Positions 15,485-64,000 of a stretch of 64,000 nt of DNA are shown here, one piece after another. This DNA comes from Schmidtea polychroa (taxonomy: Eukaryota), in the NCBI GenBank assembly GCA_044892525.1, contig CM097885.1, positions 30,320,001-30,384,000 on the forward strand, written 5' to 3'. The position numbers were made by a program, and so were the translations under genes. Below the pieces are notes generated by a model. That model saw only the letters and a program-made list of their open reading frames with translations, had not been told where the DNA came from and ran no database searches. The first letter of the stretch is position 1. Every line of letters begins with the position of its first letter.

Positions 15485-15515
<31 letters not shown>

Positions 15516-23204: not shown

Positions 23205-23252
<48 letters not shown>

Positions 23253-23689
23253 CATTTAAATTTTCATTTGACTTTGAAAAATATTTCATTAAAATTAACT
23301 TAAAAATTATTTCATTAAAATTTGTATTTAAAATTATCTTAAAAAATTTTGCATTTAAAATTAACTTAAAAAAATATTTCATTAAAAATTTTCATTAAAA
23401 ATTACATTTCTCAAAAAAGTTGGTGGTTATTCAATCTTTTGATAATAAATTTAAAATTCTTACTTTAATTTACTTATTTAGCTTTAATTTAAAATTTTGA
23501 CCATTGGATACTTAATTTTAAATTTTGAACCTTAATTTACTTATTTAAAATTTTTAACTTTAATTTACTTATCCTTAATTTGCCTATTTATCCTTTATTA
23601 CTTAATTTTACACCATAATTTACTAAACAACTAATTATAACCCTTATTTTCATATTTAACCAATAATTTCATGTGGTCATCTGGTTGTA

Positions 23690-32160: not shown

Positions 32161-38096
<5,936 letters not shown>

Positions 38097-38609
38097 AATT
38101 TTGTCAACTCGATTCGTTTTCGGTATTTTATTCCCGAATTTGTTTTTGAGTCTTCAATATAAATTATTAGAAAGATATTCATACTGATGGTAAAGGAGGT
38201 GGAAGGGGTGGGGGCGGTAATGAATTAACATTGTTATTAATTTAAGTGCACTTGATTATTCACTTGATATATTCAAAAAACTGATTACGTAATAATTTCC
38301 ATTATTCGAACAAACGATTTAAATGCGATTTAATTAATTTAATAATAATGATAATTATGCGTGCCAGCATTTATACTTATAATACTTTTTCTATATAATA
38401 ATATTTGTAACTTATAATACAATATATATTTTATTTATAAATTTGTTATTTCAATATTCCTAACAAACATTAAAATGTAGGAATTTTTGAACTTGAAGTA
38501 GTATACAAACCTTCGTACTGTAATTCACTTTGAAAAGTTACGAGAAGTAAATTAGGAATTGTTCAATCTCAAAATAGTAGGTAGAAGTGAGCCCACGATG
38601 ACTCATCGT

Positions 38610-38960
38610 TAAGGTCAACTTAAGGTCATAGAAAATTTTGAGGTCAACTTAAGGTCAAATTTTAAGGTCAATGTCATTTTCAGGTCAATTTAAGGTCAAT
38701 TTAAGCCATTTAAAGGTCAAATTCTGAGGTCAAAGTCGATTTTAGGCCATTTTAAGGTCAAATCTTGAGGTCAAAGTCGATTTTAGGCTATTTTAAGGTC
38801 AACTTCTGAGGCCAAAGTCTAATTTTTCCAAATTTTAAGGTCATAGGAAATTTTAAGGTCAACCCCCCTACCCCCTACCCCTATTTTTAAGGTCATAGAA
38901 AATTTTAAGGTCAACCCCCTACCCCCTACCCCTAATTTTAAGGTCAAATCAAGGTCAAAA
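38610..38960. repeat. Subterminal (A/G)AGGTCA repeat array with CCCCCTACCCCCTACCCC units; mirror at 48745-49212
   Basis: Seen directly; 2 C/G-tract units in the left arm and 4 in the right arm. Confidence 0.9.
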
Positions 38961-39464
38961 ATTAAAAATTTTCTAAGTCCATTTAACGAATTACTTTATA
39001 GAAAATTTTCAAAGTCAAAACACGTTTTAATACTACGTTTGCAAATGTCTTTGTTACTCATGCATTTGCATTGCAAATGTCTTTGTTACTCATGCACTTG
39101 TATTGCATATGTCTTTGTATTACACACCTTAAGGATAGAAAAATATTTCTAAGCGAGATCTAAAGTGAATGTGTGTAAAGGGCAATAAATAAGGGTAAAA
39201 TCAAAATTTTTTAAGAAAATACATGTAATTTGATTAAAATTTATGAAAACTATATATATATATATATTTGTTTTATTTTGGTCAGATAATCTATGTGTGT
39301 CTGTATATGAAAACATTGATAAGGAGCAATAAATAATGGACGGTTTTACTCACACACAAGTTTTATATCATTCGAAAGTCTACTATATATATAATACATA
39401 ATTGAATCGAATCAAAATAAGGGTAAAATAAATGGTAAAATAAAATGGTCATTATCAGACATTT

Positions 39465-39524
<60 letters not shown>

Positions 39525-39606
39525 ATCTATTTATTTTAAATAAAAATATGTAATTATGATCATAGTTAATTTAAGCACATATTTATTTCACTTTTCACAA
39601 AATAAT

Positions 39607-39656
39607 TTTAAAATACCACAACGTAATATATTTTCTATCTTAATTTTAATTGGCTG
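39607..39656 (+). promoter_or_regulatory. Putative pPolB promoter motif with inverted CCAAT; mirror at 48072-48121
   Basis: TTTTAAAATACC(A/G)CAACGTAATATATT..ATTTT(A/G)ATTGG is shared with element A (20395-20455); about 65 nt before the predicted ATG at 39718. Confidence 0.55.
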
Positions 39657-39717
39657 GAGAATAAAGTATGCTTTTCATTATAAACATTTTCATTATTACA
39701 AAATAACTTTAGAAATA

Positions 39718-42700
39718 ATGATCACAGACATCGATTACGAAAATGGTATTTTCATTATTTTTTAATTCATTTTAATATATATATATATATATTTATTTTC
39801 TAGATAGCGATTGTGTCATAATTGAAGAACATTTTGTTACTTCGATACCTGCAAACGAATATGGACGAAAAAGTTAAATAATAATAATTCATTGCTTATT
39901 CTTAATTGTCTTTTCCAGGAAATTTTAATGAGGATTCAGTTGATGATTCAGTTGCTTGTGCTGCTGGAACTATTGAATATTTCGCAAAGAAGATAAAATG
40001 TAAGTAAATTACAAAATTTAACTTAGATTTCTAGTTATATATTTCTTTGTTTAAGAAAATTTAAATTAGTAAAAAATGATATTTAATCAGATGTTAATAT
40101 TTAGATGAATTCATTTAAATAAATTTCTTAAAATTAATGAAAATTAGTAATATATTAATTATTAATTAAAATTAGTACAAAGTTAATATATTTACTGAAA
40201 TTATTTTTTAGACAATATTTTAATTATTGATAAGGAATATTATTTTTTACTATAAGTAACCTAATTATAGAAAAGATATTTATTATACCAGAAATAAACA
40301 GAATTCTGTCACTGATGTCAAATTAAAAAAATATAAACTTCTGCTTTTGATATCTCTGAGAATAATTTTCTAAAACAATTTTCATGAAAAATAGGTGAAG
40401 AAATTATATACTTTACCTGTTAAAGAAAAGTATGACTACAAAAACAATTGATGTTTCAGATTTTCAATATATAATATTAACAATTTTAATTGTATTATAA
40501 AAATTTCAGATTTGAAGATAAAAATGTTCATTTATGCAACTCAAATTTTTGCCCAAGTCCTTTGAAGCATAAATAATATACGTATCACATAAATACAAAT
40601 ATATTGATATATAAACTGAAAAAAAAAAGTACAAAGTTAATATATTTACTGAAATTATTTTTTTTAGACAATATTAATATAGTTATTGTTAGTTTATTTT
40701 AACTATATTACGACGATCAACTTTAATTTTATTATAAAAAAAAAATGATGAAAGTATAAATAAAACTTCATTTTAAAATCGAATTTTTATTTGCAATATT
40801 ATTTTTACATTAATCAACTAAGATGAGATTAATTTAAAATTTGATTGCATCACGAAACTTCTAGTATTTCATGTAAGTGAAATTAAAAGTATATGGATTG
40901 TTAAATAATTGTCATATTTCTATAGTTCTTTGTTTAAGAAAATTTAAAATAGTAAAAAAAAAATGATATTTAATCAGATGTTTATTGGTAAATATTTAGA
41001 TATTTAGATTTAGATTTAGATTTAAATAAATTTCTTAAAATTATTGAGAATTATTGAGACTTCCACTCCAAGGGCCATATATAATAAATTAGTACAAAGT
41101 TCAAATTTTAAATGAAATTTATTAGACAATATATATATTTTTTTAACTATATTAAGACGTTCAACATGAATTTTATTATAAAAAATAATGAAAGTATAAA
41201 TGAAACTTCATTTCAAAAATATGAATTGTGATAAAAAAAAAATTGAACAATTTTGAAATAACTAAGGGCATTCAATAATATTGTAACTCATTAAATAAAG
41301 TTTACATAGTGAGCTAAATGCTGCCCTTGTCCATTTTTATGGTGTATAGAGGTGAAAAATAAATTTAGATGCACAATGAAATTTAAAAGTGTAAATCTAT
41401 AAAAAGTTAAAATTTATAAAAAAAAAATTGAAAATTCGAAAAAATTAAAAATTGATGCATGTATGTACGTATGGCAAATAAAAAGACTAGCACAAATACA
41501 ATAAAATAAAATCATCTAGGACATCCACTTAATGATTTATTTTATGAATGATTATAATTGATTTTATCTTATTTTGAATTTGAATAAATAATTGAATATA
41601 CCCTGGACAAATTAACTTAATTATAAATTTTAATATATTAATAATTTTGGAATAATAATAATTAAGATAAATGATAATCAATAGAGATAAATGAATTACC
41701 GATAATATAAATGAAATTCAATATTATAAATAAACCATATAATTAAACCATTTAATGGTTAAAAATAAATAAAACATAAAACATAAAATAATAAAATAAA
41801 TATATTATAAAATTAAATAATTCCTTTTTATATTGCATTTCGCTATATAAACCAAGATCAAAATCAACCTTTCCGCCCATAAAAATATAAACTTTTGAGA
41901 GATGTTTATTGTTAAATATATTTAAAAAGAAACATAATAAAGCAATTGTAATTATTTAAGGCAATTTATACAAACAATGTTGCACCGCAAAAGAACATGA
42001 TGGGAAACAATGCCATGAAGCAATGGAAAAATACTATTTAAGAAATTATTATAATAAAAAATATTATTTATGCCCATTTTGCGAAGCTCTTTTCACTAAG
42101 CCCTATGAAATATTTTATAATGATCACAAAGATCATCTTACATATTTTAAATCTGATAAGAAAGAAATTTTTAAAAAATTATTTAATAACGGTATAATAG
42201 ACGTACCTACTAAAAAACAAAAACTTAATGATAACATCATCATTATAGATGAATCTGATGATGATGATGTTATCGTTATAGGTGAATCAAGGAATTTTTT
42301 AAATTATCAAATTGGTTGTGGATCAACTAATTTGATAGAAGATATTGAAGAATCAGTGGAAGAACCAGTGGAAGAACCGATGGAAGAACCTGTGGAAACG
42401 GAACAAATAGTAGAAGAGGACAATATATGGGATGATTTCCAGATTGTTAATGAATGGGAACCTACTGAAGAAGTCGAGATTGAATCTGACTTGAAAAATT
42501 GTCATAAAACAATTAAAATGTCGTTCAAAAACATGAATGAGATAAATCTACCCGAAAATTTCTCTGAGAAACTATTATCTACAATCAAGGAGATGAAAAC
42601 TGTGAAAGTTCAATTCGGGATAGAATGTGATTTCGAAAAGGATGGAGAATTCCAATCATCAAGATTTTCTAACAAAGCGGTGATGGTAACTGAGAACAAT

Positions 42701-43774
42701 TTTGAAAAGTTTATTGCAGATGGTATTGAAAAGCTGCACGAGAAAATTCATATCAGATCGGAACTTGGAAGCGGATGGCGTCTGATAAGAATAATTGAAA
42801 TAAATTTCAAAATAACTAAGATTTCCGAAATATCCAGATTATCCGGAAGAAATTATATTCCAACTCCGAAAGCCTTAATAAATAAAAATGCATTAATAAA
42901 TGTGATCAACGGAGATGATATGTGTTTCATATACAGTGTGCTAGCCAATTTGAAAAAAGATATCATTATTACTGATAATACAAATGTTGAAAATTATACA
43001 CAGTTCTTATCCGAATTGGTATATAATGAATTAGATATGCCAATGAAATTGAAGGACATTTCAAAATTCGAAAAGCATAACGAAGGAATTGCTATCAATG
43101 TCCTCAGTTACAATCCTAAAAATATGATTGATATCGATAATGTGGATATTATAATGAAACATCCACATATTGATATAATACATCGGACTAAAGTAACTGG
43201 GGTTACACCGATGTATTTACTATTGTTAGAATCGAATGGCCAATACCACTATACTGCAGTTCCAGATTTACAGCGATTAATGAATTGTAGAAAAACTCAT
43301 AGTTGCCCAGTCCGTATTCAATGCAGATGGTGCGAGACATGTTTAAATGGTTTTAGAAGAGAAGATGCTTTTGACAGGCATGTAGCTTTATGCAAGAAAA
43401 ACCAATTGGGCACAACATTATACACGTTGCCAGAAAACTCAGATTTAAAATTTAATGACTGGTCAAAAATGGTAACTCCGCCTTTTGTTATATATGCTGA
43501 CTTCGAAGCTGTTTTACCTCTTGATGAAATATGGGCTCAATCAATTTCCTCATTGGAGTCTCAGCTGCATACCAACAAGCACTGAGAAATTTTTAACATT
43601 GATAGCATGGCTGGGTAAATTTACAATAAGATTTATTTACTCATATCAGTTTGTCAATACTTCATTACATACTGCAGTAAAAACATTGAACGACTTGCCT
43701 TTGACCCGTTCAGTATTCAATACTGCAACCATCATAAACAACAAAGGAATTTTTCCTTATGATTTTGCCACAAG
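39718..43774 (+). pseudogene. Truncated pPolB, left copy. Predicted exons 39718-39745, 39804-39872, 39919-39999, 41961 onward; internal deletion and frameshift at 43529; stop at 43585
   Basis: ELGSGW, DMCFIYSVL, YHY, CETC..H..C and Exo I YADFEA present; after the deletion KYGLNQFPHW..KGIFPYDFAT continues in another frame. No polymerase motifs A/B/C. Confidence 0.9.
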
Positions 43775-46700
43775 TGAGGAAATTGATTGAGCCCATATTT
43801 CAAAATGTGATGTAGATCATACCCTTTCAGATTATGAAATACGATGGGTAATGTTTCTCTGATTTTCCTTTGTTGATTGCATACATTGCATGAGGCTCCG
43901 AGATATATGCCAGTGAAATGATCATGGTCTTTCACTTTCTCTGGCATTGGCTTTTTGCACAAGTAACAATTGACTGCTGTGTGGAATTGCAGCTTTTCCT
44001 GATTTGTCAAAAATTTCATTTGACAATGCCCTCTTGTCTTATAATAAACCTTCACTATATTGTTGACAATATTTTCTACATCCATCAGAAATCTGTATAC
44101 ACAATCTGGTCCAATAAAATGACTATATTTCGTTGACCCAGTAAAATTATTTACCAGTAACAGCCCCGCTGCTATAGGTAAATGTTTTTGGTGTTGTCTT
44201 TCATCAAGAGGTAAAACAGCTTCGAAGTCAGCATATATAACAAAAGGCGGAGTTACCATTTTTGACCAGTCATTAAATTTTAAATCTGAGTTTTCTGGCA
44301 ACGTGTATAATGTTGTGCCCAATTGGTTTTTCTTGCATAAAGCTACATGCCTGTCAAAAGCATCTTCTCTTCTAAAACCATTTAAACATGTCTCGCACCA
44401 TCTGCATTGAATACGGACTGGGCAACTATGAGTTTTTCTACAATTCATTAATCGCTGTAAATCTGGAACTGCAGTATAGTGGTATTGGCCATTCGATTCT
44501 AACAATAGTAAATACATCGGTGTAACCCCAGTTACTTTAGTCCGATGTATTATATCAATATGTGGATGTTTCATTATAATATCCACATTATCGATATCAA
44601 TTATATTTTTAGGATTGTAACTGAGGACATTGATAGCAATTCCTTCGTTATGCTTTTCGAATTTTGAAATGTCCTTCAATTTCATTGGCATATCTAATTC
44701 ATTATATACCAATTCGGATAAGAACTGTGTATAATTTTCAACATTTGTATTATCAGTAATAATGATATCTTTTTTCAAATTGGCTAGCACACTGTATATG
44801 AAACACATATCATCTCCGTTGATCACATTTATTAATGCATTTTTATTTATTAAGGCTTTCGGAGTTGGAATATAATTTCTTCCGGATAATCTGGATATTT
44901 CGGAAATCTTAGTTATTTTGAAATTTATTTCAATTATTCTTATCAGACGCCATCCGCTTCCAAGTTCCGATCTGATATGAATTTTCTCGTGCAGCTTTTC
45001 AATACCATCTGCAATAAACTTTTCAAAATTGTTCTCAGTTACCATCACCGCTTTGTTAGAAAATCTTGATGATTGGAATTCTCCATCCTTTTCGAAATCA
45101 CATTCTATCCCGAATTGAACTTTCACAGTTTTCATCTCCTTGATTGTAGATAATAGTTTCTCAGAGAAATTTTCGGGTAGATTTATCTCATTCATGTTTT
45201 TGAACGACATTTTAATTGTTTTATGACAATTTTTCAAGTCAGATTCAATCTCGACTTCTTCAGTAGGTTCCCATTCATTAACAATCTGGAAATCATCCCA
45301 TATATTGTCCTCTTCTACTATTTGTTCCGTTTCCACAGGTTCTTCCATCGGTTCTTCCACTGGTTCTTCCACTGATTCTTCAATATCTTCTATCAAATTA
45401 GTTGATCCACAACCAATTTGATAATTTAAAAAATTCCTTGATTCACCTATAACGATAACATCATCATCATCAGATTCATCTATAATGATGATGTTATCAT
45501 TAAGTTTTTGTTTTTTAGTAGGTACGTCTATTATACCGTTATTAAATAATTTTTTAAAAATTTCTTTCTTATCAGATTTAAAATATGTAAGATGATCTTT
45601 GTGATCATTATAAAATATTTCATAGGGCTTAGTGAAAAGAGCTTCGCAAAATGGGCATAAATAATATTTTTTATTATAATAATTTCTTAAATAGTATTTT
45701 TCCATTGCTTCATGGCATTGTTTCCCATCATGTTCTTTTGCGGTGCAACATTGTTTGTATAAATTGCCTTAAATAATTACAATTGCTTTATTATGTTTCT
45801 TTTTAAATATATTTAACAATAAACATCTCTCAAAAGTTTATATTTTTATGGGCGGAAAGGTTGATTTTGATCTTGGTTTATATAGCGAAATGCAATATAA
45901 AAAGGAATTATTTAATTTTATAATATATTTATTTTATTATTTTATGTTTTATGTTTTATTTATTTTTAACCATTAAATGGTTTAATTATATGGTTTATTT
46001 ATAATATTGAATTTCATTTATATTATCGGTAATTCATTTATCTCTATTGATTATCATTTATCTTAATTATTATTATTCCAAAATTATTAATATATTAAAA
46101 TTTATAATTAAGTTAATTTGTCCAGGGTATATTCAATTATTTATTCAAATTCAAAATAAGATAAAATCAATTATAATCATTCATAAAATAAATCATTAAG
46201 TGGATGTCCTAGATGATTTTATTTTATTGTATTTGTGCTAGTCTTTTTATTTGCCATACGTACATACATGCATCAATTTTTAATTTTTTCGAATTTTCAA
46301 TTTTTTTTTTATAAATTTTAACTTTTTATAGATTTACACTTTTAAATTTCATTGTGCATCTAAATTTATTTTTCACCTCTATACACCATAAAAATGGACA
46401 AGGGCAGCATTTAGCTCACTATGTAAACTTTATTTAATGAGTTACAATATTATTGAATGCCCTTAGTTATTTCAAAATTGTTCAATTTTTTTTTTATCAC
46501 AATTCATATTTTTGAAATGAAGTTTCATTTATACTTTCATTATTTTTTATAATAAAATTCATGTTGAACGTCTTAATATAGTTAAAAAAATATATATATT
46601 GTCTAATAAATTTCATTTAAAATTTGAACTTTGTACTAATTTATTATATATGGCCCTTGGAGTGGAAGTCTCAATAATTCTCAATAATTTTAAGAAATTT

Positions 46701-48010
46701 ATTTAAATCTAAATCTAAATCTAAATATCTAAATATTTACCAATAAACATCTGATTAAATATCATTTTTTTTTTACTATTTTAAATTTTCTTAAACAAAG
46801 AACTATAGAAATATGACAATTATTTAACAATCCATATACTTTTAATTTCACTTACATGAAATACTAGAAGTTTCGTGATGCAATCAAATTTTAAATTAAT
46901 CTCATCTTAGTTGATTAATGTAAAAATAATATTGCAAATAAAAATTCGATTTTAAAATGAAGTTTTATTTATACTTTCATCATTTTTTTTTTATAATAAA
47001 ATTAAAGTTGATCGTCGTAATATAGTTAAAATAAACTAACAATAACTATATTAATATTGTCTAAAAAAAATAATTTCAGTAAATATATTAACTTTGTACT
47101 TTTTTTTTTCAGTTTATATATCAATATATTTGTATTTATGTGATACGTATATTATTTATGCTTCAAAGGACTTGGGCAAAAATTTGAGTTGCATAAATGA
47201 ACATTTTTATCTTCAAATCTGAAATTTTTATAATACAATTAAAATTGTTAATATTATATATTGAAAATCTGAAACATCAATTGTTTTTGTAGTCATACTT
47301 TTCTTTAACAGGTAAAGTATATAATTTCTTCACCTATTTTTCATGAAAATTGTTTTAGAAAATTATTCTCAGAGATATCAAAAGCAGAAGTTTATATTTT
47401 TTTAATTTGACATCAGTGACAGAATTCTGTTTATTTCTGGTATAATAAATATCTTTTCTATAATTAGGTTACTTATAGTAAAAAATAATATTCCTTATCA
47501 ATAATTAAAATATTGTCTAAAAAATAATTTCAGTAAATATATTAACTTTGTACTAATTTTAATTAATAATTAATATATTACTAATTTTCATTAATTTTAA
47601 GAAATTTATTTAAATGAATTCATCTAAATATTAACATCTGATTAAATATCATTTTTTACTAATTTAAATTTTCTTAAACAAAGAAATATATAACTAGAAA
47701 TCTAAGTTAAATTTTGTAATTTACTTACATTTTATCTTCTTTGCGAAATATTCAATAGTTCCAGCAGCACAAGCAACTGAATCATCAACTGAATCCTCAT
47801 TAAAATTTCCTGGAAAAGACAATTAAGAATAAGCAATGAATTATTATTATTTAACTTTTTCGTCCATATTCGTTTGCAGGTATCGAAGTAACAAAATGTT
47901 CTTCAATTATGACACAATCGCTATCTAGAAAATATATATATATATATATATATTAAAATGAATTAAAAAATAATGAAAATACCATTTTCGTAATCGATGT
48001 CTGTGATCAT
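43732..48010 (-). pseudogene. Truncated pPolB, right copy (657-aa ORF 45705-43732 plus mirrored 5' exons from 48010)
   Basis: Identical to the left copy except M/I in NPKN(M/I)ID; continues through CYLC..DHDHFTG..CNVCN and Exo II FHNLKGYD; homology stops at FPH (43775). Confidence 0.9.
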
Positions 48011-48201
48011 TATTTCTAAAGTTATTTTGTAATAATGAAAATGTTTATAATGAAAAGCATACTTTATTCTCCAGCCAATTAAAATTAAGATAGAAAATAT
48101 ATTACGTTGTGGTATTTTAAAATTATTTTGTGAAAAGTGAAATAAATATGTGCTTAAATTAACTATGATCATAATTACATATTTTTATTTAAAATAAATA
48201 G

Positions 48202-48235
<34 letters not shown>

Positions 48236-49538
48236 AAATGTCTGATAATGACCATTTTATTTTACCATTTATTTTACCCTTATTTTGATTCGATTCAATT
48301 ATGTATTATATATATAGTAGACTTTCGAATGATATAAAACTTGTGTGTGAGTAAAACCGTCCATTATTTATTGCTCCTTATCAATGTTTTCATATACAGA
48401 CACACATAGATTATCTGACCAAAATAAAACAAATATATATATATATATATAGTTTTCATAAATTTTAATCAAATTACATGTATTTTCTTAAAAAATTTTG
48501 ATTTTACCCTTATTTATTGCCCTTTACACACATTCACTTTAGATCTCGCTTAGAAATATTTTTCTATCCTTAAGGTGTGTAATACAAAGACATATGCAAT
48601 ACAAGTGCATGAGTAACAAAGACATTTGCAATGCAAATGCATGAGTAACAAAGACATTTGCAAACGTAGTATTAAAACGTGTTTTGACTTTGAAAATTTT
48701 CTATAAAGTAATTCGTTAAATGGACTTAGAAAATTTTTAATTTTTGACCTTGATTTGACCTTAAAATTAGGGGTAGGGGGTAGGGGGTTGACCTTAAAAT
48801 TTTCTATGACCTTAAAAATAGGGGTAGGGGTAGGGGGGTTGACCTTAAAATTTTCTATGACCTTAAAAATAGGGGTAGGGGGTAGGGGGGTTGACCTTAA
48901 AATTTTCTATGACCTTAAAATTTTCTATGACCTTAATAATAGGGGTAGGGGTAGGGGGGTTGACCTTAAAATTTTCTATGACCTTAAAATTTGGAAAAAT
49001 TAGACTTTGGCCTCAGAAGTTGACCTTAAAATAGCCTAAAATCGACTTTGACCTCAAGATTTCACCTTAAAATGGCCTAAAATCGACTTTGACCTCAGAA
49101 TTTGACCTTAAAATGGCTTAAATTGACCTTAAATTGACCTGAAAATGACATTGGCCTTAAAATTTGACCTTAAGTTGACCTCAAAATTTTCTATGACCTT
49201 AAGTTGACCTTAACGATGAGTCATCGTGGGCTCACTTCTACCTACTACTGTATAATTTCTTTTGTTTTAATTGGATAAATTGCATGTTTTGTCAATTTGA
49301 CTTCAATAAAATAAACTGCACTACAACGTATATCGATTATTCTCTTATGTTTTCTCTTAGAAAATATAAAATTATACCAACACTAAAATATCACTTAAAA
49401 CCAAATTCAGCAAATTACGCTGTTACAGAATATCCTTCCCTGTGCTTTTCCTCTAATAGTGTCAAATCTGAAAGTATGTTGGGCTATATATTTTCTCTAT
49501 TTTGGCTATCTGCCAGATATATATTATTGAAACTGGTT

Positions 49539-51306: not shown

Positions 51307-52336
51307 TGTTGGGTTTTATGATATCAAGATCAACCGTTGGTTACTCTGACTCCACGTGTTCCAAAATCAATAAACACAAACTCCCAACGTATATTTGTTT
51401 TATAACAATTCACAACTCTCAACAATTAATCACACTATTGGTTAATCACAATTCTTACACAATTTAAGATCGAACTCCGCTCTGGAAGGTCTCGGCCTTG
51501 TACGATTTAAAAAAAATTGGTTTCACCTTTTGCTTGATTCCGCTCTCTGATCCGAACTCTTTTAATATTCCTTTCTGACTCCCAAATTCCTCTTATAATT
51601 CCTTTTTCCTTTTATTTTATTCCTCGAACTCCTATCGTCTGTTTCTTCGTGTCCCTACCTAAGGCTATCGCCAATTATGTGAATTTTGAGTTTCCTTATA
51701 TACTCCCATAATCGTTGTAATTGCCCCGTTTTTGACCTAATTGATTTTGACTTCTTCCGCTATCATTCCCTAATTGACTATTTTTGTTGACCCTCTTCGT
51801 AATTCCCCGTCTTTTGTTTACCCTCGTTTATCCGGTTGTTTGGATAATTGCCCTCTGAATTCCTCGTTTGTTTACCCTTCCAAATTGCCGTGCTCGGGTT
51901 TTCTTCATCGCTCGGGTTCTCCATTGGCTCGGGCTTCCCATTAGCTCGGGTTTCCCATTAGCCAATTAATTAATTAATTAATATTTTACGTTTTTCCACA
52001 TTTGTCTGTTTTACGACCCTTTCTACACATTTTCTAACAATTTCTTGCTCACTGTCTTCTTCACCATCCCTTAATCTACCCCTCTCCCGTTTTCCAGCTT
52101 CAATTTCGATAACTTCTCACTTTATTCCACTTCCTCCGGTTTGCGCATTTTCCCATTTCATCTCTGATTGTACCCTTTTATAGTTCTGTTTTTATCATAT
52201 CTTTCTTTGCCATTGCTTCTCTGCTTGACCGCCATTCAATTTCGGCTTTCCTTTTAATCTGAACTATATAATTTAATAATTTATTTTCAAACCTCAACAT
52301 ATCTCCCCCCTTAAAAAAAAATTTCGTCCTCGAAAT
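51307..52336 (-). mobile_element. Ty3/Gypsy 3' LTR (51307-52299) with polypurine tract
   Basis: TGTTG..CAACA ends; on the minus strand TTTCGAGGACGAAATTTTTTTTTAAGGGGGGAGATA directly precedes TGTTGAGG, a typical Gypsy PPT context. Confidence 0.8.
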
Positions 52337-53258
52337 ATGCTTATTCGAGAATGTAATTTCAGTTAAAATTCACATATATTATTATTATTATTATTTTAAT
52401 TTCATTTGATTGGAGAGTCATAATAAAATATTTAGAATATTAAAATTTTGAGATTATTTTATTAAATTGATAGATATTTAAAATTTTGAGACTATTATTA
52501 ATTTTATTAGACTTTATTAGACTATTATTAATTTTATTAAAATTCGTCTTTAATTTAACATGCATAATGTTTAATGATTTAGATTACCCATATATCAGTT
52601 TTATCATTGCAGTTCAATTTAAAATATTCCATCGATCAACATTCGAATCGAGTTAAGGGAGGTTAAAATTTATCACAGTTTGTTTGCTCCGAGATAGGAG
52701 CTAATATTCAAATGACCCACTCCAACCGTCCACCGGAACCAATATGATAAACATTGATTTGTGTAGTGGTTGCACAAATAGTGATCCCAAACTCACATTA
52801 ACCCAAATACACAAATATACCAAACAATCTACGATATAGGCGTGTCTGCACGACTTATCAATTCTGATCGACTGGTGCTGAAGTGCTGTGCAATTACTGC
52901 TGGAAGAGAAATATCATATATAAACTGTACTATTACCCAAAATCTCATTCGGATTTGTCTGGTAATTTGCTAATTGAATTTTATTTATTCCATCACAACA
53001 AAACTCCATCGACATTATTATTTTAATCAACTACGTTAAAGGGTAAGGATGATTTGCTATTTGAATTTTATTTATTTATTTTCAGTTAGGTGTGTTCGTA
53101 TTTGAATTTTCGTTGATTTTTTTTTTAAAAGATACAGAAGTCATAAAAATTTGATGAATTTAGAGTAATTAATGTCACGGTAGAGGATCATATGTTTCTT
53201 GAAATTTTTTCTTTTTTAATTAATTTGTTTAAATTCATAATTGAAAATATATCGTTAA

Positions 53259-53348
53259 CCCTTTTCTATCCTGTGTATGTAAAATTATGACAAAAAAATA
53301 AGAGATTGAAATATGCAGGGCGCAGACAATACTGAGGAGAGGAAAGGG
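53259..53348. mobile_element. 90-bp piggyBac-type MITE
   Basis: TTAA|CCCTTT..AAAGGG|TTAA. Confidence 0.6.
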
Positions 53349-53569
53349 TTAATACATTTTAGATTAAAAGATCGAATAATTTTAAAAAATGTTTTATCAT
53401 CATTTTGATATTAAATTCAATATATCATCACAGATTATTATAACAACAAATTCCAAAGACGGAATATTTCTCTTCGCTAATTCTAATCAACGCACAAAAT
53501 TTTATTGAACATGTTAGGCAATCGAAAATATTTCTCTACAGATCGTTACAAGCGCACTATAATTCCGGA

Positions 53570-53925
53570 TGATGATTCGTGCATTCTACAAACATATACT
53601 CGGCATTTCTATTTGATATACTGATCTAGAAAAAGAATACTATCAGTTTTTCCCTGGTTCGGAATTCCTATAGAAAAGGATGTTTTGACAATGCTTCTCT
53701 ATCAAACGTTTTCTATTCAAATATCAGAATTTGGACCGACAGAAACTCACTAGTACTACTCACAGAAGAAAATAAATCTGAATATGTTAAATTAGTTTGT
53801 CAAGAGAAAATGATTGGAGCTATTCACCAACAACTTCATAGTTTTCTCGAAGGGTTTTACGAAATCATACCCAAAAATTTGATCTCCATTTTCAATGAAA
53901 AAGAACTTGAACTACAAGTTTCAAG
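53570..53925 (+). pseudogene. Intronless HECT E3 ligase (HUWE1-like) fragment
   Basis: AFYKHILGISI*YTDLEKE and [51 protein letters not shown], with stops and frameshifts. Confidence 0.8.
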
Positions 53926-54739
53926 AGCTCGTTGACTTGAAGATAGTTATGGTCGATTACAGCGGAAAACAGCTGAAGAATGGAAACAGAAGTTCTGTAT
54001 CAAGTTTGTGACTTGCTGTAATGGAAAAAAAATTTTTTTTGTTAAATGTAACTACAAATTATTATTTTACATTTTATTATTTTATTATTATGCTTTTTCT
54101 TGGAGTAGCTTGTGTCGTTACCGCAATATGTATTCATGCCCAATATCGTTTGGATTTCAAATGAGCAATTTTAAGACAGTTAATAGAAAATTATTAAACT
54201 TTTAAAATTATTCATGTGAAAAATTACATTCTAATAATCATTCAAAAAAAATATTAAAAAGTATTTTTCCATTTCATTATTAAATATTTCTCTTTCATCT
54301 TCCTTGTAATAGAAATTCGATTTTCCAATATAACTAGCTTCCTATCTAAATGTTGAGTGTATCTTAATGATTGAAAGCTATCAATTATGCATTATTAGTA
54401 GGGAGTTAGTGGCCCACGGCAGCAATAGGGGGGGGGGGTAAAAAATGTTGCAAACTTTTGATTGCATAACTTTTTCCGTAGACATTTTTTGATTACATAA
54501 TTGTTGCCGTAATGCCCAATGTTTTCTGGGATTTTAAATACAAATTTTTTTTTTTTTTTTTTTTTTCAATAAACAAGCCAAGGATAAATATTATTTGGGT
54601 GGGTCTCCTTGGTCCTGAGAATTTCAATAGAAAAAGGTAGTCTTCAATAAAAAAGCATGGATTTTTCACACTATAGTGAGGGGATCTTCTTGGTCATGAG
54701 AATTTCAATAGAAAAGGTGGTTTACATTAAAAAACGCAT

Positions 54740-55400
54740 AGTAAATTTTTAAAATAAAGTAAATTATGGGTCTAAAATTTAAAAATAAAGTAAATGATGG
54801 GTCTAAAAATTTAAGTAAATCAAGGTTCAGATTTATTTTTGAAATAAAGTAAATTATGGTCTAAATAAGTAAATTATGGGCTAAGATTTTTCAATTAAAG
54901 TAAATAATGGTTCTAAAAAATTAAATTACAGTAAATTATGGTCCAAATTTTTAAATTAAAGTAAATTATGGTTCTTAAAAATTAAATTAAAGTAAATTAT
55001 GGTTCTTAAAAATTAAATTAAAGTAAATTATGGTCAAAATTTTTGAATTACAGTCCAAAAATTTAAATTAAAGTAAATTATGATCCAAATTTTTAAATTA
55101 AAGTAAATAATGGTTCTAAAAAATTAAATTAAAGTAAATAATGGTCCAAATATTTTAAATTACAGTAAATAATGGTTCTAAAAATTAAATTACAGTAAAT
55201 AATGGTCAAAAATTTTAAAATTAAAGTAAATTATGGTTCTAAAAATTAAATTAAAGTTAATTAAGGTCCAAATTTTAAAATTAAATAATCAATGGTAAAA
55301 AAAAATTTAAATTAAAGTTAAATAAGTAAATTAAAGTAATAATTTTTAAATAAGTAAATTAAAGTAATGTAATAAGTAAATTAAAGTAAGATTTTTAAAT
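54740..55400. repeat. Subterminal tandem array of about 30-bp units (AATTAAAGTAAATTATGGT..)
   Basis: Seen directly; inverted homologue of 25250-26265. Confidence 0.9.
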
Positions 55401-55575
55401 TTATTAACAAAAATAGAAGGTGTTTGAGAATTGAAATTTTTTAATGGAAATTTTAATGAATTATTTTTTAAGTAATTTTTAATAGAAATTTTTATGAATA
55501 ATTTTCAATGGTAATTTTTAATGGAAATTTTAATAGAATAATTTTTAAGATAATTTTTAATGAAAATTTTTATGA

Positions 55576-55625
<50 letters not shown>

Positions 55626-55798
55626 TAATATTAATAATATATCAACCAAATACTATACAACACATAAAAAATTAACTAAACACATAAAAATAACTAGACA
55701 CATAACAAAACATATAAACATTAACTAAACACATAAAAATGAACTAGACACATAACAAACATAAAAATTTACCAAATAACAAATGTAAAGATATAAAA

Positions 55799-55804
55799 TT
55801 TATT
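55799..55804 (-). terminator. Putative polyadenylation signal of pPolB
   Basis: AATAAA on the minus strand 8 nt after the stop codon, followed by a T/GT-rich tract (55790-55640). Confidence 0.5.
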
Positions 55805-55812
55805 CAATAAAA

Positions 55813-58800
55813 TTAGTCCTCATCGGACAAAATAACGTCATCGATATCGATGTCATCTTCTCCAAAATCTTCATTTAATTCTTCCTCATCTTCTCCATCA
55901 TTTTCTCCAACATTTTCTGAAACATTTTCTGCAACAATTTCTCCAACATTTTCTCCAATATTTAATTCACTTAATCTTACATGCCCATATGCAAGACTAG
56001 TATTTTGCCCCACCCAAACCCTTTTGTCATCTTTGTTAGTTAGTGCTATTTTTGTGTTTTTAATTGTAAAAATTTGATGATTTTTGCTTGTTATTTTAGT
56101 CTGAGGAACCGAAAAAATCTGGTTAGTGTTATAACAATCCAGGTATGACTGATGTTTTATGTCACTACCTTTCAATGTTACACCTTTAGCCTTTTTTGTT
56201 TCCTCATCACCCAACAAGCTATAACATTTAGGTCTAAGAAAAACCCACTCCTTATATTTAAGACCTTTATTCTCGTCTTTGAACTTTCCAATGACTGAAT
56301 CAAGGTTCTTACTATATAAGGAATGACAACTATTGTAATTGGAAGTATCCAATAAATTATCTCGAACCATTGCAGGTAAAAGAACCTCAAGTTTGCAGTT
56401 AATGACTTCGAGGAAAAAAGAATCTGTATCACCTGCAACGATATTAATTTTACAATTAAACTCATTGCGAAATGATTCCAGATCCTTATATTGCAATTCA
56501 TACATTCTAAGTTTAGATAGATCAAGTACAGATTGACCAATGTAACTCGGTCTATCTAAACATATAGAATCGGAATTCAATAGTGCTGCAATTAAATTAT
56601 CTGCTATTTTAATAGATTTTTTAAAAGTCGGTTTTGACGAATATTTAACTAATTTACCGGCAGTTGTACAAAGACGAAGATTCATTCTTCTCTTTAAATT
56701 TTCAACTGTTTTGCCGTATAAACTATTATTTAGCAATTTATAATAATTTTTATCTAAGCTATTTACGCTTTTTGATCTTAATTCGGTATTTGTATCTATA
56801 TATTTTTTAAAAATTGGTGATTGCTTAAATCTTACACCCCTATTTACACGTGTTACTTTAACACCAAGTTCCAAATATAATTTTAATAATCTCCAATGAA
56901 TAACATAATTAGATTTTGGAAGATGAGTTAATAATAATTTTTCAACCTTAGACCCAGCAGGTTTCATTTTTTCAGCAGCTACAGGGAAATCATCCAACTT
57001 ATCATGAAGCTCAGAAGGAATTACAAGATCAACTTCAAGTGTGTATCCATAAGACAAAGATTCAAGATTTAAATTCCTACATTCATCCATTATTTTATCA
57101 AATCCATCAAGAACCCAACAAAATTCGCCACAAGGTAATGATTGACTTAAAGCCCAGCCATAAAGATTATTAATATCTATATATAGTAACTCAGTGTTCT
57201 CGTCGGTTTTTACGTAATGCTTATTCACAAAAGTAAGACCGCCTCTTATTCCACCCTCATAAAAGCTAAACATTTCGTTTTCAGTTATGAGTTCAATTGG
57301 TTCATTTAAAGACATTAATGCAGAAGACCAAGACATGCCTGGAATTCCGAAATAATTCAATGGTTCCAATCTATTGTGAGCAATGGATTTCAACCGAAAC
57401 TGATGAAAGAAATCAGCCAAAAGAAAACAATCAAGTTTTAGGTAGATCATCATATAATCTAATAAAGTTACGCAATTAGTTTCTACCCAAATCTCCTGAG
57501 CTTTTTCATACTCAAGCTCAGTGACACCCTCCCAGATTGGTGGTAATTCATAAGTAGTTTGGAGAATATCTAAAGAAGTGGCGAAATTATAAGGGAAGAT
57601 TCCTTTTTCACTTACTATGGTGCCAGAAAAAGCAGAATTAGTAAAAGGCAAAGAATTCAAAGTTTTGACTGCTTTAGCCAAAGAATCATTGACAAATTGA
57701 TACGAATCAATGAATCTTAGGCTAATTTTACCTAAATGCGCAATCAAAGATATAAATTTTTCCGTAGTTATTGGGATGCACCCTAAATTCCAATTTTTAA
57801 ATTTATTTAATCCATATTTAAGTATATGGTGCATATCGTATCCCTTCAAGTTGTGAAATACGATAGGCAAAATTTTATTTATTTTCCTATTTACGTTACA
57901 TGTGCTACAAGCTGCACCCAAGTATTTCCCCGTAAAATGATCGTGATCTCTAACAGGATCGACGATAGATTTCATACAAAGATAACAAACAGATGCACTA
58001 ACAAATTGACGTTGTTCAATTTTTGTTAATTTCATCATAGGTTTCCTATCCATTTTATAATAAAAAGGAAGAACCTTATTTAATGCTATATCCTCTATAG
58101 CACTTAAAAAACTCTCGACGCAATCTAAACCTATGAACTGCTGATAAGATTTAGATCCGTCAAAGTTATTTACAAGTAAAAGACCAGCAGATATTGGCAT
58201 GTGTCGTTGGAAATGATCATTATCAGAAGGTAAAATAGCCTCAAAATCTGCATAAACTACAAAAGGAGGAGTTACTGTTTTCGACCAGTCAGTAAACTGT
58301 AATAATTTATTTTGAGGGAAGGTGTAAAGAGTTGTTCCTAATTGATTACGTTTACATAATATTTCATGTTTTTCTAGTGCGTGTTTATTATTAAACCCAT
58401 TCAAACACCGATGGCACCATAATGAACGTATGCGTGTAGGACAACTAGTGTTGATATGACAATTCATTAACTTATTTAAATTACTTATAGCAACGTAATG
58501 GAAATTGTTTCCTTTATTTAATAATAGTAAATTAATTACAGTTCCATTTAAAACTTTGGAACGATGTATAATATCTAAATGTGGGTGTTTTAATACGTAA
58601 TTATCTATTAATTGTTTGTTATTGTCATAAGAAAAAACGTTAATTATTAAGCCTGGATTTTTGGCCTCGAATTTTCTAATATCTTTTAATTTCATGGGTA
58701 AGTCCAATGGATTATATATTAATTCAGATAAATTATAACTGGATGTCCTATTTCTAGCATAACTACTAACCTCATCATATTTTAAAATAGCTAAAATGCT

Positions 58801-60154
58801 ATATAAAAAACATGAATCATCGGTGTTTTTTATATTAATTAAACAATATTTATTTTTTAGATAAGTAGGTGTTTCAATGAAACTCCTACCACTTAATCTA
58901 CTTAGCCTACTTATTTTTGTTATGGTGAAATGTATTTCAGTGATATTTTTTATATTCCAACTGCTTCCTAACTCAGTAATATTAGTAATTTTCTCATTTA
59001 ATTCCTTAATGCCTTCATCAAAAAATGATGCAGTTAAAGGCTTTGCATAATTTGAGATATTATTAACCTTTATTTCCCCGTCTTTTTCAAATTCGATTGT
59101 TATTCCGAATTGAATTTTGACGGAGCCTAATTCGTTAATAATATCTCGTAATTTTTTTATTAGTTGTTCAGGAAATATTATTTCTTTTATATTTAAGTCG
59201 CTTGTATTTAAGCTTAATATTTGATGGGTACCTCTTAGATCTTTTTGTATTATTGGAACATTTCCACCTATTTGTATTATATTTAATCCATCCCAAGAGT
59301 CAAGGGAAATATTATCTAATCCAACCTGGGATTCAACAACCAATCCATCATGGGATTCGACAACCAATCCATCATTGGATTCCACAAAAGGCAATCCGAC
59401 CTGGGATTCAAAAGAAGAAGTATCTAATTTAATTTTTTTATTTTTATTATTTTTTTCTATAGTTGAGGGTCTTTTAAAAACACTATCTTTTTTAAAATTA
59501 AACCTATCTAAATGATTTTTATGTTTATTATAAAAAACGCTATATGTTACGGGGTCACTAGTCTTACATACGGGACATATAAAATAAGTTTTATTATAAT
59601 ATTTTTTCGTATAATAATTCTCCATTATAGAATGGCAATTATTATCATGTTCTTTCGATGAACAATAATTTGGGTAAAGTATACCTATAAAATAAAAATT
59701 TAATAAAAAAAATATAATTTAAATGAAATATTTTAGTAAATGTTTACGCAAAAATTTGCAAATTATTATTATTTTACAAATTTTATTTACTAAAAAATAA
59801 AAATTTACTAAATTAAAAATATTAACATTTACTTAAATAAAAAATTATATTAAATTTCCTTTAAATTATAAAAAGTAATCAATACTTACATTGTAAATTT
59901 TCATTTCGATTTATTGACACATTGACATAATTTTTTTCTTTATTCGTATTACCTAAATTATTAATTAATTAAATCAATAAATTAAAAATTATGTTTACTT
60001 TTTCTTTTCAAATTTCCTTTAATCTTAGATTTTAAATTGTCTTCATTAATATTATCTAAATTAATTAATAAATTAATTAATAAATAAATTAAAATTTACC
60101 AAATTTCTGAATTTTTTCTCGGACATTCATAACGTTTTCTATTAAAGAATTCAT
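55813..60154 (-). CDS. polB: Intact protein-primed family B DNA polymerase (Polinton/Maverick type). Exons 60154-60100, 60055-59999, 59952-59890, 59684-55813; predicted 1348 aa (1270-aa ORF from 59625)
   Basis: Exo I YADFEA, Exo II FHNLKGYD, Exo III YLKLD, KGIFPY, Pol A YIDINNLYG, Pol B KLLNNSLYGK, Pol C GDTDS, RPKCY, KAKGV, DDKR; endonuclease VII-like insert DHDHFTGKYLGAACSTCN. Three GT-AG introns splice in frame. Confidence 0.95.
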
Positions 60155-60746
60155 TTTTAAAGGTTAACTATTTGTTAAATGTGACTAATGATTGATTATT
60201 GTTTATAGATTATTATTGTTTATAGATTATTATTGTTCATAGGAACAAATTCTAACCAATCAAAATCAAGGAAGGGTAGGAAAAAATTAATTTATTTTAA
60301 AACACATTTTGACGCTAAAGTTGACTTATTTAACATTTTCATAATAATTTAATAAAAATAATGTGATGAACCCACAAAGTAATATCATTTTTCATCAAAT
60401 TGTAAAACAGTAATAACGTTTTCATAAAATTGTAACAAAGTAATAACATATTTCAGATAATTTTTCAACAGTTGTAAAATATTTAAGCAAATTGTAACAA
60501 GATTAGAAAATATTACAACAAAGTAGTAACATATTTCAGAAAATTTCAACAAATTTGTAAAATATTTATCAAATTGTAACTAAAATAATAAAAATATTGC
60601 AACAAAGTAATAAAATAATAATGGTAATTAAGACAAATCAATACATTATTTCGAAGACGGACAACAAATTAAAAAGAATATTGTAACTAAAATAATAAAA
60701 ATATTGCAACAAAGTAATAAAATAATACAACATTTTAAACTCTAGA

Positions 60747-61160
60747 TCAATCCATTTTATAGAAAATTAAATTCTATCTATATAATATATGAATAAATAT
60801 CCAAGGAAATTACGTTAACGTATAATAAATACAAATTTATCGTAAAAACATGTGTGTATTACACACAAAACAAGATACATAATTTCTAATCAATCCATTT
60901 TATAGAAAATTAAATTTTATCTATATATTATATGAATAAAATCCTAAGAAAATTACGTTAACTGTATGAAAAATACAAATTTATCATAAAAACATGTGTG
61001 TATTACACACAACATACGAGACATAATTTTTAATCAAGCTATTTTATAGAAAATTAAATTTTATCTATATATTATATGAATAAAATCCTAAGAAAATTAC
61101 GTTAACCGCGCGAAAAATACAAATTTATTGTAAAAACATGTGTGCATTACACACAAAGTA
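60747..61160. repeat. Three tandem units of about 143 bp next to the axis; mirror at 61290-61700
   Basis: Units start at about 60747, 60890 and 61034; each has TACGTTAAC and a TGTG(TG)..TTACACACA mini-hairpin. Confidence 0.9.
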
Positions 61161-61179
61161 TCAAACTGAAATTGTAATT

Positions 61180-61267
61180 GCGCCATGTTGTAGAGAATTA
61201 AATTCTCCCTATACATGGTTACACTTAAATCTCGATCAGACATGTGAAAAGAGACATAAAAGATAAA
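61180..61267. other. Asymmetric central spacer with an internal imperfect hairpin (61183-61218)
   Basis: CCATGT-TGTA-GAGAATT-A-AATTCTC-CCTAT-ACATGG folds back on itself. Confidence 0.75.
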
Positions 61268-62120
61268 AATTACAATTTCAGTTTGATACTTTGTGTGTAA
61301 TGCACACATGTTTTTACAATAAATTTGTATTTTTCGCGCGGTTAACGTAATTTTCTTAGGATTTTATTCATATAATATATAGATAAAATTTAATTTTCTA
61401 TAAAATAGCTTGATTAAAAATTATGTCTCGTATGTTGTGTGTAATACACACATGTTTTTATGATAAATTTGTATTTTTCATACAGTTAACGTAATTTTCT
61501 TAGGATTTTATTCATATAATATATAGATAAAATTTAATTTTCTATAAAATGGATTGATTAGAAATTATGTATCTTGTTTTGTGTGTAATACACACATGTT
61601 TTTACGATAAATTTGTATTTATTATACGATAACGTAATTTCCTTGGATATTTATTCATATATTATATAGATAAAATTTAATTTTCTATAAAATGGATTGA
61701 TCTAGAGTTTAAAATGTTGTATTATTTTATTACTTTGTTGCAATATTTTTATTATTTTAGTTACAATATTCTTTTTAATTTGTTGTCCGTCTTCGAAATA
61801 ATGTATTGATTTGTCTTAATTACCATTATTATTTTATTACTTTGTTGCAATATTTTTATTATTTTAGTTACAATTTGATAAATATTTTACAAATTTGTTG
61901 AAATTTTCTGAAATATGTTACTACTTTGTTGTAATATTTTCTAATCTTGTTACAATTTGCTTAAATATTTTACAACTGTTGAAAAATTATCTGAAATATG
62001 TTATTACTTTGTTACAATTTTATGAAAACGTTATTACTGTTTTACAATTTGATGAAAAATGATATTACTTTGTGGGTTCATCACATTATTTTTATTAAAT
62101 TATTATGAAAATGTTAAATA

Positions 62121-62195
62121 AGTCAACTTTAGCGTCAAAATGTGTTTTAAAATAAATTAATTTTTTCCTACCCTTCCTTGATTTTGATTGGTTAG
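62121..62195 (+). promoter_or_regulatory. Putative pPolB promoter motif; mirror at 60252-60326
   Basis: TTTAGCGTCAAAATGTGTTTT..TTCC(T/A)TGATTTTGATTGGTTAG is shared with element A (20352-20455); about 100 nt before ATG 62293. Confidence 0.6.
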
Positions 62196-62292
62196 AATTT
62201 GTTCCTATGAACAATAATAATCTATAAACAATAATAATCTATAAACAATAATCAATCATTAGTCACATTTAACAAATAGTTAACCTTTAAAA

Positions 62293-64000
62293 ATGAATTC
62301 TTTAATAGAAAACGTTATGAATGTCCGAGAAAAAATTCAGAAATTTGGTAAATTTTAATTTATTTATTAATTAATTTATTAATTAATTTAGATAATATTA
62401 ATGAAGACAATTTAAAATCTAAGATTAAAGGAAATTTGAAAAGAAAAAGTAAACATAATTTTTAATTTATTGATTTAATTAATTAATAATTTAGGTAATA
62501 CGAATAAAGAAAAAAATTATGTCAATGTGTCAATAAATCGAAATGAAAATTTACAATGTAAGTATTGATTACTTTTTATAATTTAAAGGAAATTTAATAT
62601 AATTTTTTATTTAAGTAAATGTTAATATTTTTAATTTAGTAAATTTTTATTTTTTAGTAAATAAAATTTGTAAAATAATAATAATTTGCAAATTTTTGCG
62701 TAAACATTTACTAAAATATTTCATTTAAATTATATTTTTTTTATTAAATTTTTATTTTATAGGTATACTTTACCCAAATTATTGTTCATCGAAAGAACAT
62801 GATAATAATTGCCATTCTATAATGGAGAATTATTATACGAAAAAATATTATAATAAAACTTATTTTATATGTCCCGTATGTAAGACTAGTGACCCCGTAA
62901 CATATAGCGTTTTTTATAATAAACATAAAAATCATTTAGATAGGTTTAATTTTAAAAAAGATAGTGTTTTTAAAAGACCCTCAACTATAGAAAAAAATAA
63001 TAAAAATAAAAAAATTAAATTAGATACTTCTTCTTTTGAATCCCAGGTCGGATTGCCTTTTGTGGAATCCAATGATGGATTGGTTGTCGAATCCCATGAT
63101 GGATTGGTTGTTGAATCCCAGGTTGGATTAGATAATATTTCCCTTGACTCTTGGGATGGATTAAATATAATACAAATAGGTGGAAATGTTCCAATAATAC
63201 AAAAAGATCTAAGAGGTACCCATCAAATATTAAGCTTAAATACAAGCGACTTAAATATAAAAGAAATAATATTTCCTGAACAACTAATAAAAAAATTACG
63301 AGATATTATTAACGAATTAGGCTCCGTCAAAATTCAATTCGGAATAACAATCGAATTTGAAAAAGACGGGGAAATAAAGGTTAATAATATCTCAAATTAT
63401 GCAAAGCCTTTAACTGCATCATTTTTTGATGAAGGCATTAAGGAATTAAATGAGAAAATTACTAATATTACTGAGTTAGGAAGCAGTTGGAATATAAAAA
63501 ATATCACTGAAATACATTTCACCATAACAAAAATAAGTAGGCTAAGTAGATTAAGTGGTAGGAGTTTCATTGAAACACCTACTTATCTAAAAAATAAATA
63601 TTGTTTAATTAATATAAAAAACACCGATGATTCATGTTTTTTATATAGCATTTTAGCTATTTTAAAATATGATGAGGTTAGTAGTTATGCTAGAAATAGG
63701 ACATCCAGTTATAATTTATCTGAATTAATATATAATCCATTGGACTTACCCATGAAATTAAAAGATATTAGAAAATTCGAGGCCAAAAATCCAGGCTTAA
63801 TAATTAACGTTTTTTCTTATGACAATAACAAACAATTAATAGATAATTACGTATTAAAACACCCACATTTAGATATTATACATCGTTCCAAAGTTTTAAA
63901 TGGAACTGTAATTAATTTACTATTATTAAATAAAGGAAACAATTTCCATTACGTTGCTATAAGTAATTTAAATAAGTTAATGAATTGTCATATCAACACT
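62293..64000 (+). CDS. polB: Second (mirror) copy of pPolB, open to the window end. Exons 62293-62347, 62392-62448, 62495-62557, 62763 onward
   Basis: Reverse complement of 60154-58447; ATG GAG AAT (MENYY) at 62822. Absent from the ORF track, presumably because no stop falls in the window. Confidence 0.9.

Follow-up and report, generated by a model that had tools for sequence, protein, structure and literature searches.

A young, single-copy fold-back of a Polinton in the genome of Schmidtea polychroa

Analysis of a 64,000-bp stretch of Schmidtea polychroa DNA (G000:C1:30320001-30384000, hereafter the window) revealed a real, young and single-copy fold-back of a Polinton, assigned to a family which we designated A. 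Self-comparison of the window identified two inverted arms (38576-43529 and 44199-49246), both of which correspond to the same, polymerase-side end of the parent Polinton. Along the plus strand the order is terminus, pPolB in sense orientation, a 9-bp switch, pPolB in antisense orientation and terminus; no polymerase, integrase or capsid is encoded. The element behaves like a snap-back defective genome. A preliminary description of this DNA had proposed a complete fold-back of ~10.7 kb with arms of ~5 kb, and this structure is real: both arms end exactly at AGTAGG/CCTACT, and in the 2-kb flanks the inverted match does not continue, inverted or direct similarity being not above chance. The features of the element and its surroundings are listed in Table 1.

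Table 1. Features of the fold-back element, its flanks and the neighbouring palindrome (positions within the window).
Feature	Position	Strand	Remarks
Left flank: first half of an older host repeat	38467..38575		~80% identical to paralogs
Whole fold-back element, Polinton family A	38576..49246		10,671 bp; family label is our own
Left arm: terminus, subterminal repeats, 3.4-kb non-coding stretch, 5' part of pPolB	38576..43529	+	2 G-tract units
Truncated pPolB ORF, 520 aa: TP-like and OTU-like domains, zinc finger, ExoI motif	42023..43585	+	parent frame left at residue 502
Deletion junction, left arm: 401 bp missing	43525..43529	+	5-bp microhomology TGAAA; one exact genome match
5' half of natural 9-bp inverted microhomology (ATTTCCTCA)	43544..43552	+	
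Truncated pPolB ORF, 657 aa: TP-like (157-268), OTU-like (283-417), ExoI, EndoVII-like insert, ExoII	43732..45705	-	parent sequence left at residue 644
Loop of the original fold-back: unduplicated pPolB, sense orientation	43553..43774	+	222 bp
Fold-back (strand-switch) junction TGAGGAAAT	43775..43783	+	one exact genome match
pPolB stretch retained on the right side alone	43798..44198	-	401 bp
Right arm: left arm inverted	44199..49246	-	4 G-tract units
Right flank: same host repeat continued	49247..49291		no TSD
Neighbouring family B palindrome	54397..64000, on to G000:C1:30388003		13,607 bp; TSD ATTATT; 89-bp centre

Comparison of the plus strand with a natural copy resolved the centre into two junctions: pPolB is read in sense orientation, skips 401 bp at 43525-43529, continues in sense and switches strand at 43775-43783. 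The switch sequence is 9 bp long and its reverse complement sits 222 bp upstream in the parent gene, in which only 28 of 3,864 positions have a 9-bp inverted partner within 20-400 bp. The orientation of the strands is as expected if synthesis started at the polymerase-side terminus and the new strand then primed itself and ran back to that terminus. A 246-nt parent stretch is predicted to fold as a hairpin closing on the 9-bp match (-23.8 kcal/mol), a value of little weight, as the stretch was picked to span the match and has no shuffle control. The 401-bp deletion is later than the fold-back, because this segment is missing from one arm only and is intact on the right side. A breakpoint hot spot near ExoII was considered and rejected: only 9 of 65 breakpoints fall in that kb, and four of these come from the fold-back element.

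A genome search, as suggested at the outset, gave exactly one match for each central junction, so that no other copies sharing them were found; the element is a single dead-end insertion with no sign of spread. Its proposed replication in trans by a helper pPolB is likewise not borne out for this copy, given the single-copy junctions and the absence of a 6-bp target site duplication (TSD). The contigs of four public runs over positions 43300-44190 carry the parent's continuous form, neither junction being spanned among the pieces listed; at several sites these contigs disagree with the window at full depth, which indicates other individuals, and contigs drop rare variants.

Alignment of the arms with each other shows 6 substitutions and, in addition, 3 real indels. 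Of the substitutions, four lie in the outer 280 bp, one is located beside a (TA)n tract and one produces an M/I codon at 43126; two of the indels are changes in (TA)n length, and the third is a 119-bp block of subterminal repeats (2 G-tract units in the left arm and 4 in the right). All of the arm differences noted at the outset (the codon, the (TA)n lengths and the G-tract units) are thus seen in the alignment. With simple repeats and the first 400 bp excluded, only 1 of 4,230 internal sites differs, and the arms therefore derive from one template. Among the aligned pieces, 32 of 60 had at least 1,500 positions, and the two arms are nearer to each other than to any of the 30 other aligned arms. 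Seven other arms covering more than 4,100 sites differ by 6-18, the nearest fully covering arm by 6, and one private variant occurs in both arms of the element and in none of 22 other copies. The single template, the private variant and the pre-existing inverted microhomology uphold the view that the fold-back took place inside the element's own pPolB gene. The ends had also been described as identical, which holds for the shared AGTAGG; the outer 280 bp are only near-identical, with four substitutions, whereas none would be expected in a fresh hairpin copy. This lies within the usual range of the family (0-23 end-to-end substitutions over 24 other family A copies), which rules out the outer-end differences as proof of two origins.

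The two truncated pPolB ORFs converge, and both lack ExoIII and the polymerase motifs A, B and C, which are present in a 1,290-aa natural copy; the initial reading of them as converging copies devoid of the polymerase domain was therefore correct. The structure of the 657-aa ORF was modelled from 28 sequences (mean pLDDT 72.6). In the model, residues 157-268 match Y-family little-finger domains (best Z 8.5, rmsd 2.4, 92 aligned, Foldseek E 5e-4) and residues 283-417 match OTU proteases (Z 6.9-7.3), the Z values of both matches being middling. C301 and H409 of the OTU-like domain are invariant in the 28 aligned sequences. As modelled, the ORF retains TP-like and OTU-like domains, in agreement with the TP-vOTU-exonuclease-polymerase layout of pPolB outlined in bioRxiv 10.1101/2024.03.18.585575, where TP is likewise little-finger-like and vOTU likewise OTU-like; unlike that layout, the ORF of the element is cut inside the exonuclease and has no polymerase.

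The terminus of family A has 76 exact matches in the genome, and our sample comprised 41 regions: 25 two-ended copies, 15 that were one-ended within the stretch taken, and 1 complex duplicated locus that was left uncounted. Full-length copies (~17 kb) contain genes for (i) pPolB, (ii) an A32-type ATPase, (iii) an rve integrase, (iv) a TBP-like protein and (v) two probable capsid proteins, the latter being leads only. The search for a full-length parent pPolB was successful, in that relatives with long pPolB ORFs are present in the genome; in natural family A copies these ORFs have 1,279-1,303 aa and contain Exo I-III and motifs A-C. The family A pPolB gave no direct PF03175 match, yet PF03175 is found in 6 of its 12 closest homologs. 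The integrase matches PF00665 (rve, E 1e-7), with an additional weak chromo match, and the packaging ATPase matches PF04665 (Pox_A32, E 8e-7). The capsid candidate has an Atlas neighbour at 0.98 with PF21738 on 30% of its members, a recognition below threshold, and has no Pfam capsid match. No adenovirus-like maturation protease was detected among the 9 family A ORFs scanned. Family A thus has the features of Polintons/Mavericks, namely a protein-primed family B polymerase, an integrase, an ATPase, AGT-ended terminal inverted repeats (TIRs) and a 6-bp TSD.

Several further properties of family A were recorded. The TBP-like protein matches PF00352 (E 3e-15; L028:5004-5456, minus strand). A dual-specificity phosphatase ORF (PF00782, E 2e-21; L048:9583-9999) is present in the copy G000:C2:175829771 and absent from the reference copy, and in the copy G000:C1:64540222-64562343 the left part is duplicated in tandem over 5,181 bp (99.98%), with a new terminus starting inside pPolB.

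The fold-back element is flanked by CAAAAT on the left and ACTGTA on the right, i.e. there is no 6-bp TSD. It is the sole exception among the two-ended family A copies, 24 of 25 of which have such a TSD (one of the 24, situated in a (TAT)n tract, is uninformative), and for this reason normal integrase insertion is not shown for it. Of the features of an integrase-inserted non-autonomous Polinton, this copy has the intact termini and lacks the 6-bp TSD and the occurrence at several sites. In all three host-repeat paralogs examined, the left-flank sequence runs through 43, 29 and 43 extra bases, respectively, into the right-flank sequence. Judging from these paralogs, the element interrupts a single continuous locus, at which a short piece of the target has been lost and none duplicated; as the paralogs are only ~80% identical, the loss of 29-43 bp may predate or postdate the insertion. 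A search of termini elsewhere for a partner insertion bearing either flank as a TSD gave 0 matches. The ACTGTA motif 53 bp to the left of the element was rejected as a displaced TSD, since this stretch is continuous host repeat.

The surrounding part of the window contains pieces of a host F-box/LRR gene (32373-33236 and 37686-38096), the element beginning 480 bp past the last stop codon, and hAT transposase fragments (PF05699; 4499-5047 and 35533-35943). An older, degenerate palindrome without long ORFs is located at 15160-23680 (arms 77-85% identical), and more Polinton-like termini are found at 26629 (minus) and 49539 (plus).

A strand switch with inverted arms of 2.1-5.9 kb is present in 6 of the 25 two-ended family A copies, including the fold-back element, and every junction is different. 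The five siblings have matching 6-bp flanks. One of them (G000:C1:195151127) displays the same two steps, with a 44-bp loop and a one-arm deletion of ~2 kb. The sibling TSDs do not prove extrachromosomal folding, because the TSD would also survive a rearrangement in place with re-entry at the far terminal repeat.

The window also contains a palindrome of a second family, B, with two intact, diverging pPolB ORFs of 1,270 aa (the first at 55813-59625, minus strand), ~60% identical to family A; a PDB sequence search with this pPolB gave 0 matches. The family B terminus has 183+184 exact matches, which among 100 listed are mostly paired 13-15 kb apart, corresponding to ~180 copies, and the shared centre boundary has 186+181 matches. 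We inspected 12 copies, the one in the window and 11 selected for varied length. TSDs and inverted arms are present in 12 of 12, and in 11 of 12 all long ORFs are pPolB pieces or pPolB antisense, the remaining copy carrying a nested different Polinton. In 11 of 12, the pPolB arms within a copy are closer to each other than to those of any other sampled copy. Family B thus demonstrates the repeated insertion of palindromes that lack integrase and capsid ORFs. An autonomous family B parent was not found in a non-exhaustive look.

The centres of family B (e.g. L109-L110, L118) measure 0.7-1.4 kb, with inward-facing AGTAGAGTAGT at both edges and Polinton-like short repeats inside; the copy in the window has lost this centre. 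The centre resembles a mini-element nested in the palindrome, and the inverted ends of such an element could have determined where the strand folded back. The nested Polinton within the family B copy at G000:C1:97900478-97926647 (L120-L122) encodes a PF03175 pPolB, an A32 ATPase, PLA2 and a DJR capsid. A mirror image of ~1 kb of its edge is present in the other arm, suggesting that sequence was copied between the arms once this Polinton had inserted. A further copy (G000:C1:179837650-179844571; L117) is a 6.9-kb near-perfect fold-back within pPolB, with a 12-bp overlap, a ~28-bp loop and a 6-bp TSD. The family B element of the window and a set of Gypsy ORFs are enclosed by a 2,586-bp direct repeat of 100% identity (window 51307-53892 and G000:C1:30392984-30395569), which contains a HECT-like fragment read by eye. 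These ORFs have a CCHC knuckle and weak ubiquitin and Bcl-2 matches, and their Burro-like type hints at a planarian host.

It is probable that the element arose by fold-back of a 17-kb Polinton, in which a strand starting from the polymerase-side end folded at the 9-bp match in pPolB and was copied back, the product likely being inserted whole by an atypical route. The folding would have occurred while a free linear molecule was being replicated by protein-primed strand displacement, which would explain the precise end of the mirror at the termini. The hairpin may then have opened to an 11.1-kb duplex with an origin at each end, and the central deletion, by extending the unpaired centre from 222 to 669 bp, would stabilize it. 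Integration could have proceeded via break repair or uncoupled integrase action, or the TSD may have been lost later through a small deletion. Any further copying would need a helper, as the element encodes no polymerase, and none is evident for this copy; helper replication is made plausible by the family B palindromes and is not shown for this copy. Of the template switch by a polymerase originally proposed, the switch within pPolB stands, the polymerase responsible being probably pPolB acting extrachromosomally and less probably that of host repair acting in the chromosome.

Host repair is the basis of the main alternative, which we regard as unlikely. An integrated copy would have broken in pPolB, its end would have been folded by host repair at the 9-bp match, and the left arm would have been copied and rejoined to the far terminal repeat, the TSD being taken by a small deletion. 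Microhomology fold-back is a general repair outcome, and both the single-copy junctions and the outer 280 bp, which differ as the ordinary left and right ends of one element do, agree with such a rearrangement in place. It requires, however, a separate 29-43-bp deletion halting exactly at the terminus; moreover, the mirror does not enter host DNA, and family B palindromes have inserted as such at many sites.

An artefact, i.e. a fold-back chimera among the reads or a mis-joining of two loci in the assembly, would account for the lack of a TSD, the unique junctions and their absence from the four contig sets, but is highly improbable: each flank is one half of the same host repeat, which speaks against a mis-join as well as against a fusion of two insertions, the mirror stops at biological termini, the arms differ in microsatellite and repeat-unit number, and the two central junctions lie at natural microhomologies in a design that recurs in the siblings. 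Equally improbable is the tail-to-tail joining of two separate family members through deletion or ectopic recombination, which would suit a multi-copy family, the slightly different ends and the missing TSD, and is largely refuted by the mutual closeness of the arms, with their shared private variant, and by flanks that form one locus and recur at no terminus elsewhere.

The further mirror-image copies in the genome point to fold-back as a recurring by-product of Polinton replication. A broader proposal, which we put forward tentatively and which may well prove wrong, is that fold-back is a routine output of this replication, that fold-back genomes are copied by helpers and inserted like defective interfering genomes, and that the element is a birth record of the process behind the ~180-copy family B. 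If so, family B arms would be re-copied from each other, the element would be a fresh, base-resolved record of such a process, and its truncated genes might still provide terminal protein and protease. The base-readable junction, the independent siblings and the high-copy palindromic neighbour family together give testable predictions: free snap-back molecules in tissue, within-copy likeness of arms, and insertion without an own integrase. The value of a single fold-back copy lies in the mechanism that it has recorded.

In the literature searched (Repbase, subscription journals, older primary papers and preprint supplements lying outside the search), no account was found of fold-back or whole-element palindromic Polintons. 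The available text of bioRxiv 10.64898/2026.07.28.741278 describes terminal palindromes of 52 nt only, and the main text of bioRxiv 10.64898/2025.12.11.693146, on Maverick expansion in planarians, does not contain the string 'palindrom'. In the portions of PMC8097293 and PMC6431247 available to us, defective Polintons/Mavericks are described as mutated or fragmented, not as fold-backs, and the former treats it as unexplained how defective copies have spread by the hundreds in some genomes. A free, protein-primed linear form in Polinton replication is itself a model with little direct evidence.

Family A resembles the Polintons/Mavericks of these accounts (PMC8097293, PMC6431247) in its size of ~17 kb, AGT-type ends, TIRs, 6-bp TSDs, pPolB, rve integrase, A32 ATPase and likely double-jelly-roll capsid protein. 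Unlike them, the fold-back element consists of two mirrored polymerase-side ends and has no integrase, ATPase, capsid, polymerase domain or TSD. It shares with the copy-back/snap-back defective viral genomes outlined in PMC13506859 the duplication of one end as a reverse complement that takes up almost all of the molecule, in keeping with a polymerase continuing on the nascent strand. Those genomes belong mainly to negative-strand RNA viruses, whereas the element is DNA, is integrated and has a 222-bp loop that was later widened; as regards helper-dependent amplification or interference, the element has no second copy in the genome, and the amplified palindromes belong to another family, B. 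The duplicated end derives from a single template, as in a copy-back or snap-back genome, and the ending of the mirror at the termini suggests that a viral polymerase made the fold-back on a free genome. Palindromic or hairpin subgenomic molecules are formed in culture, in free form, by the protein-primed linear replicons of phage phi29 and yeast plasmid pGKL1. Like the element, these derivatives have two identical ends and an internal truncation of the genome and depend on a helper polymerase; they are free molecules, whereas the element is fixed in an animal chromosome.
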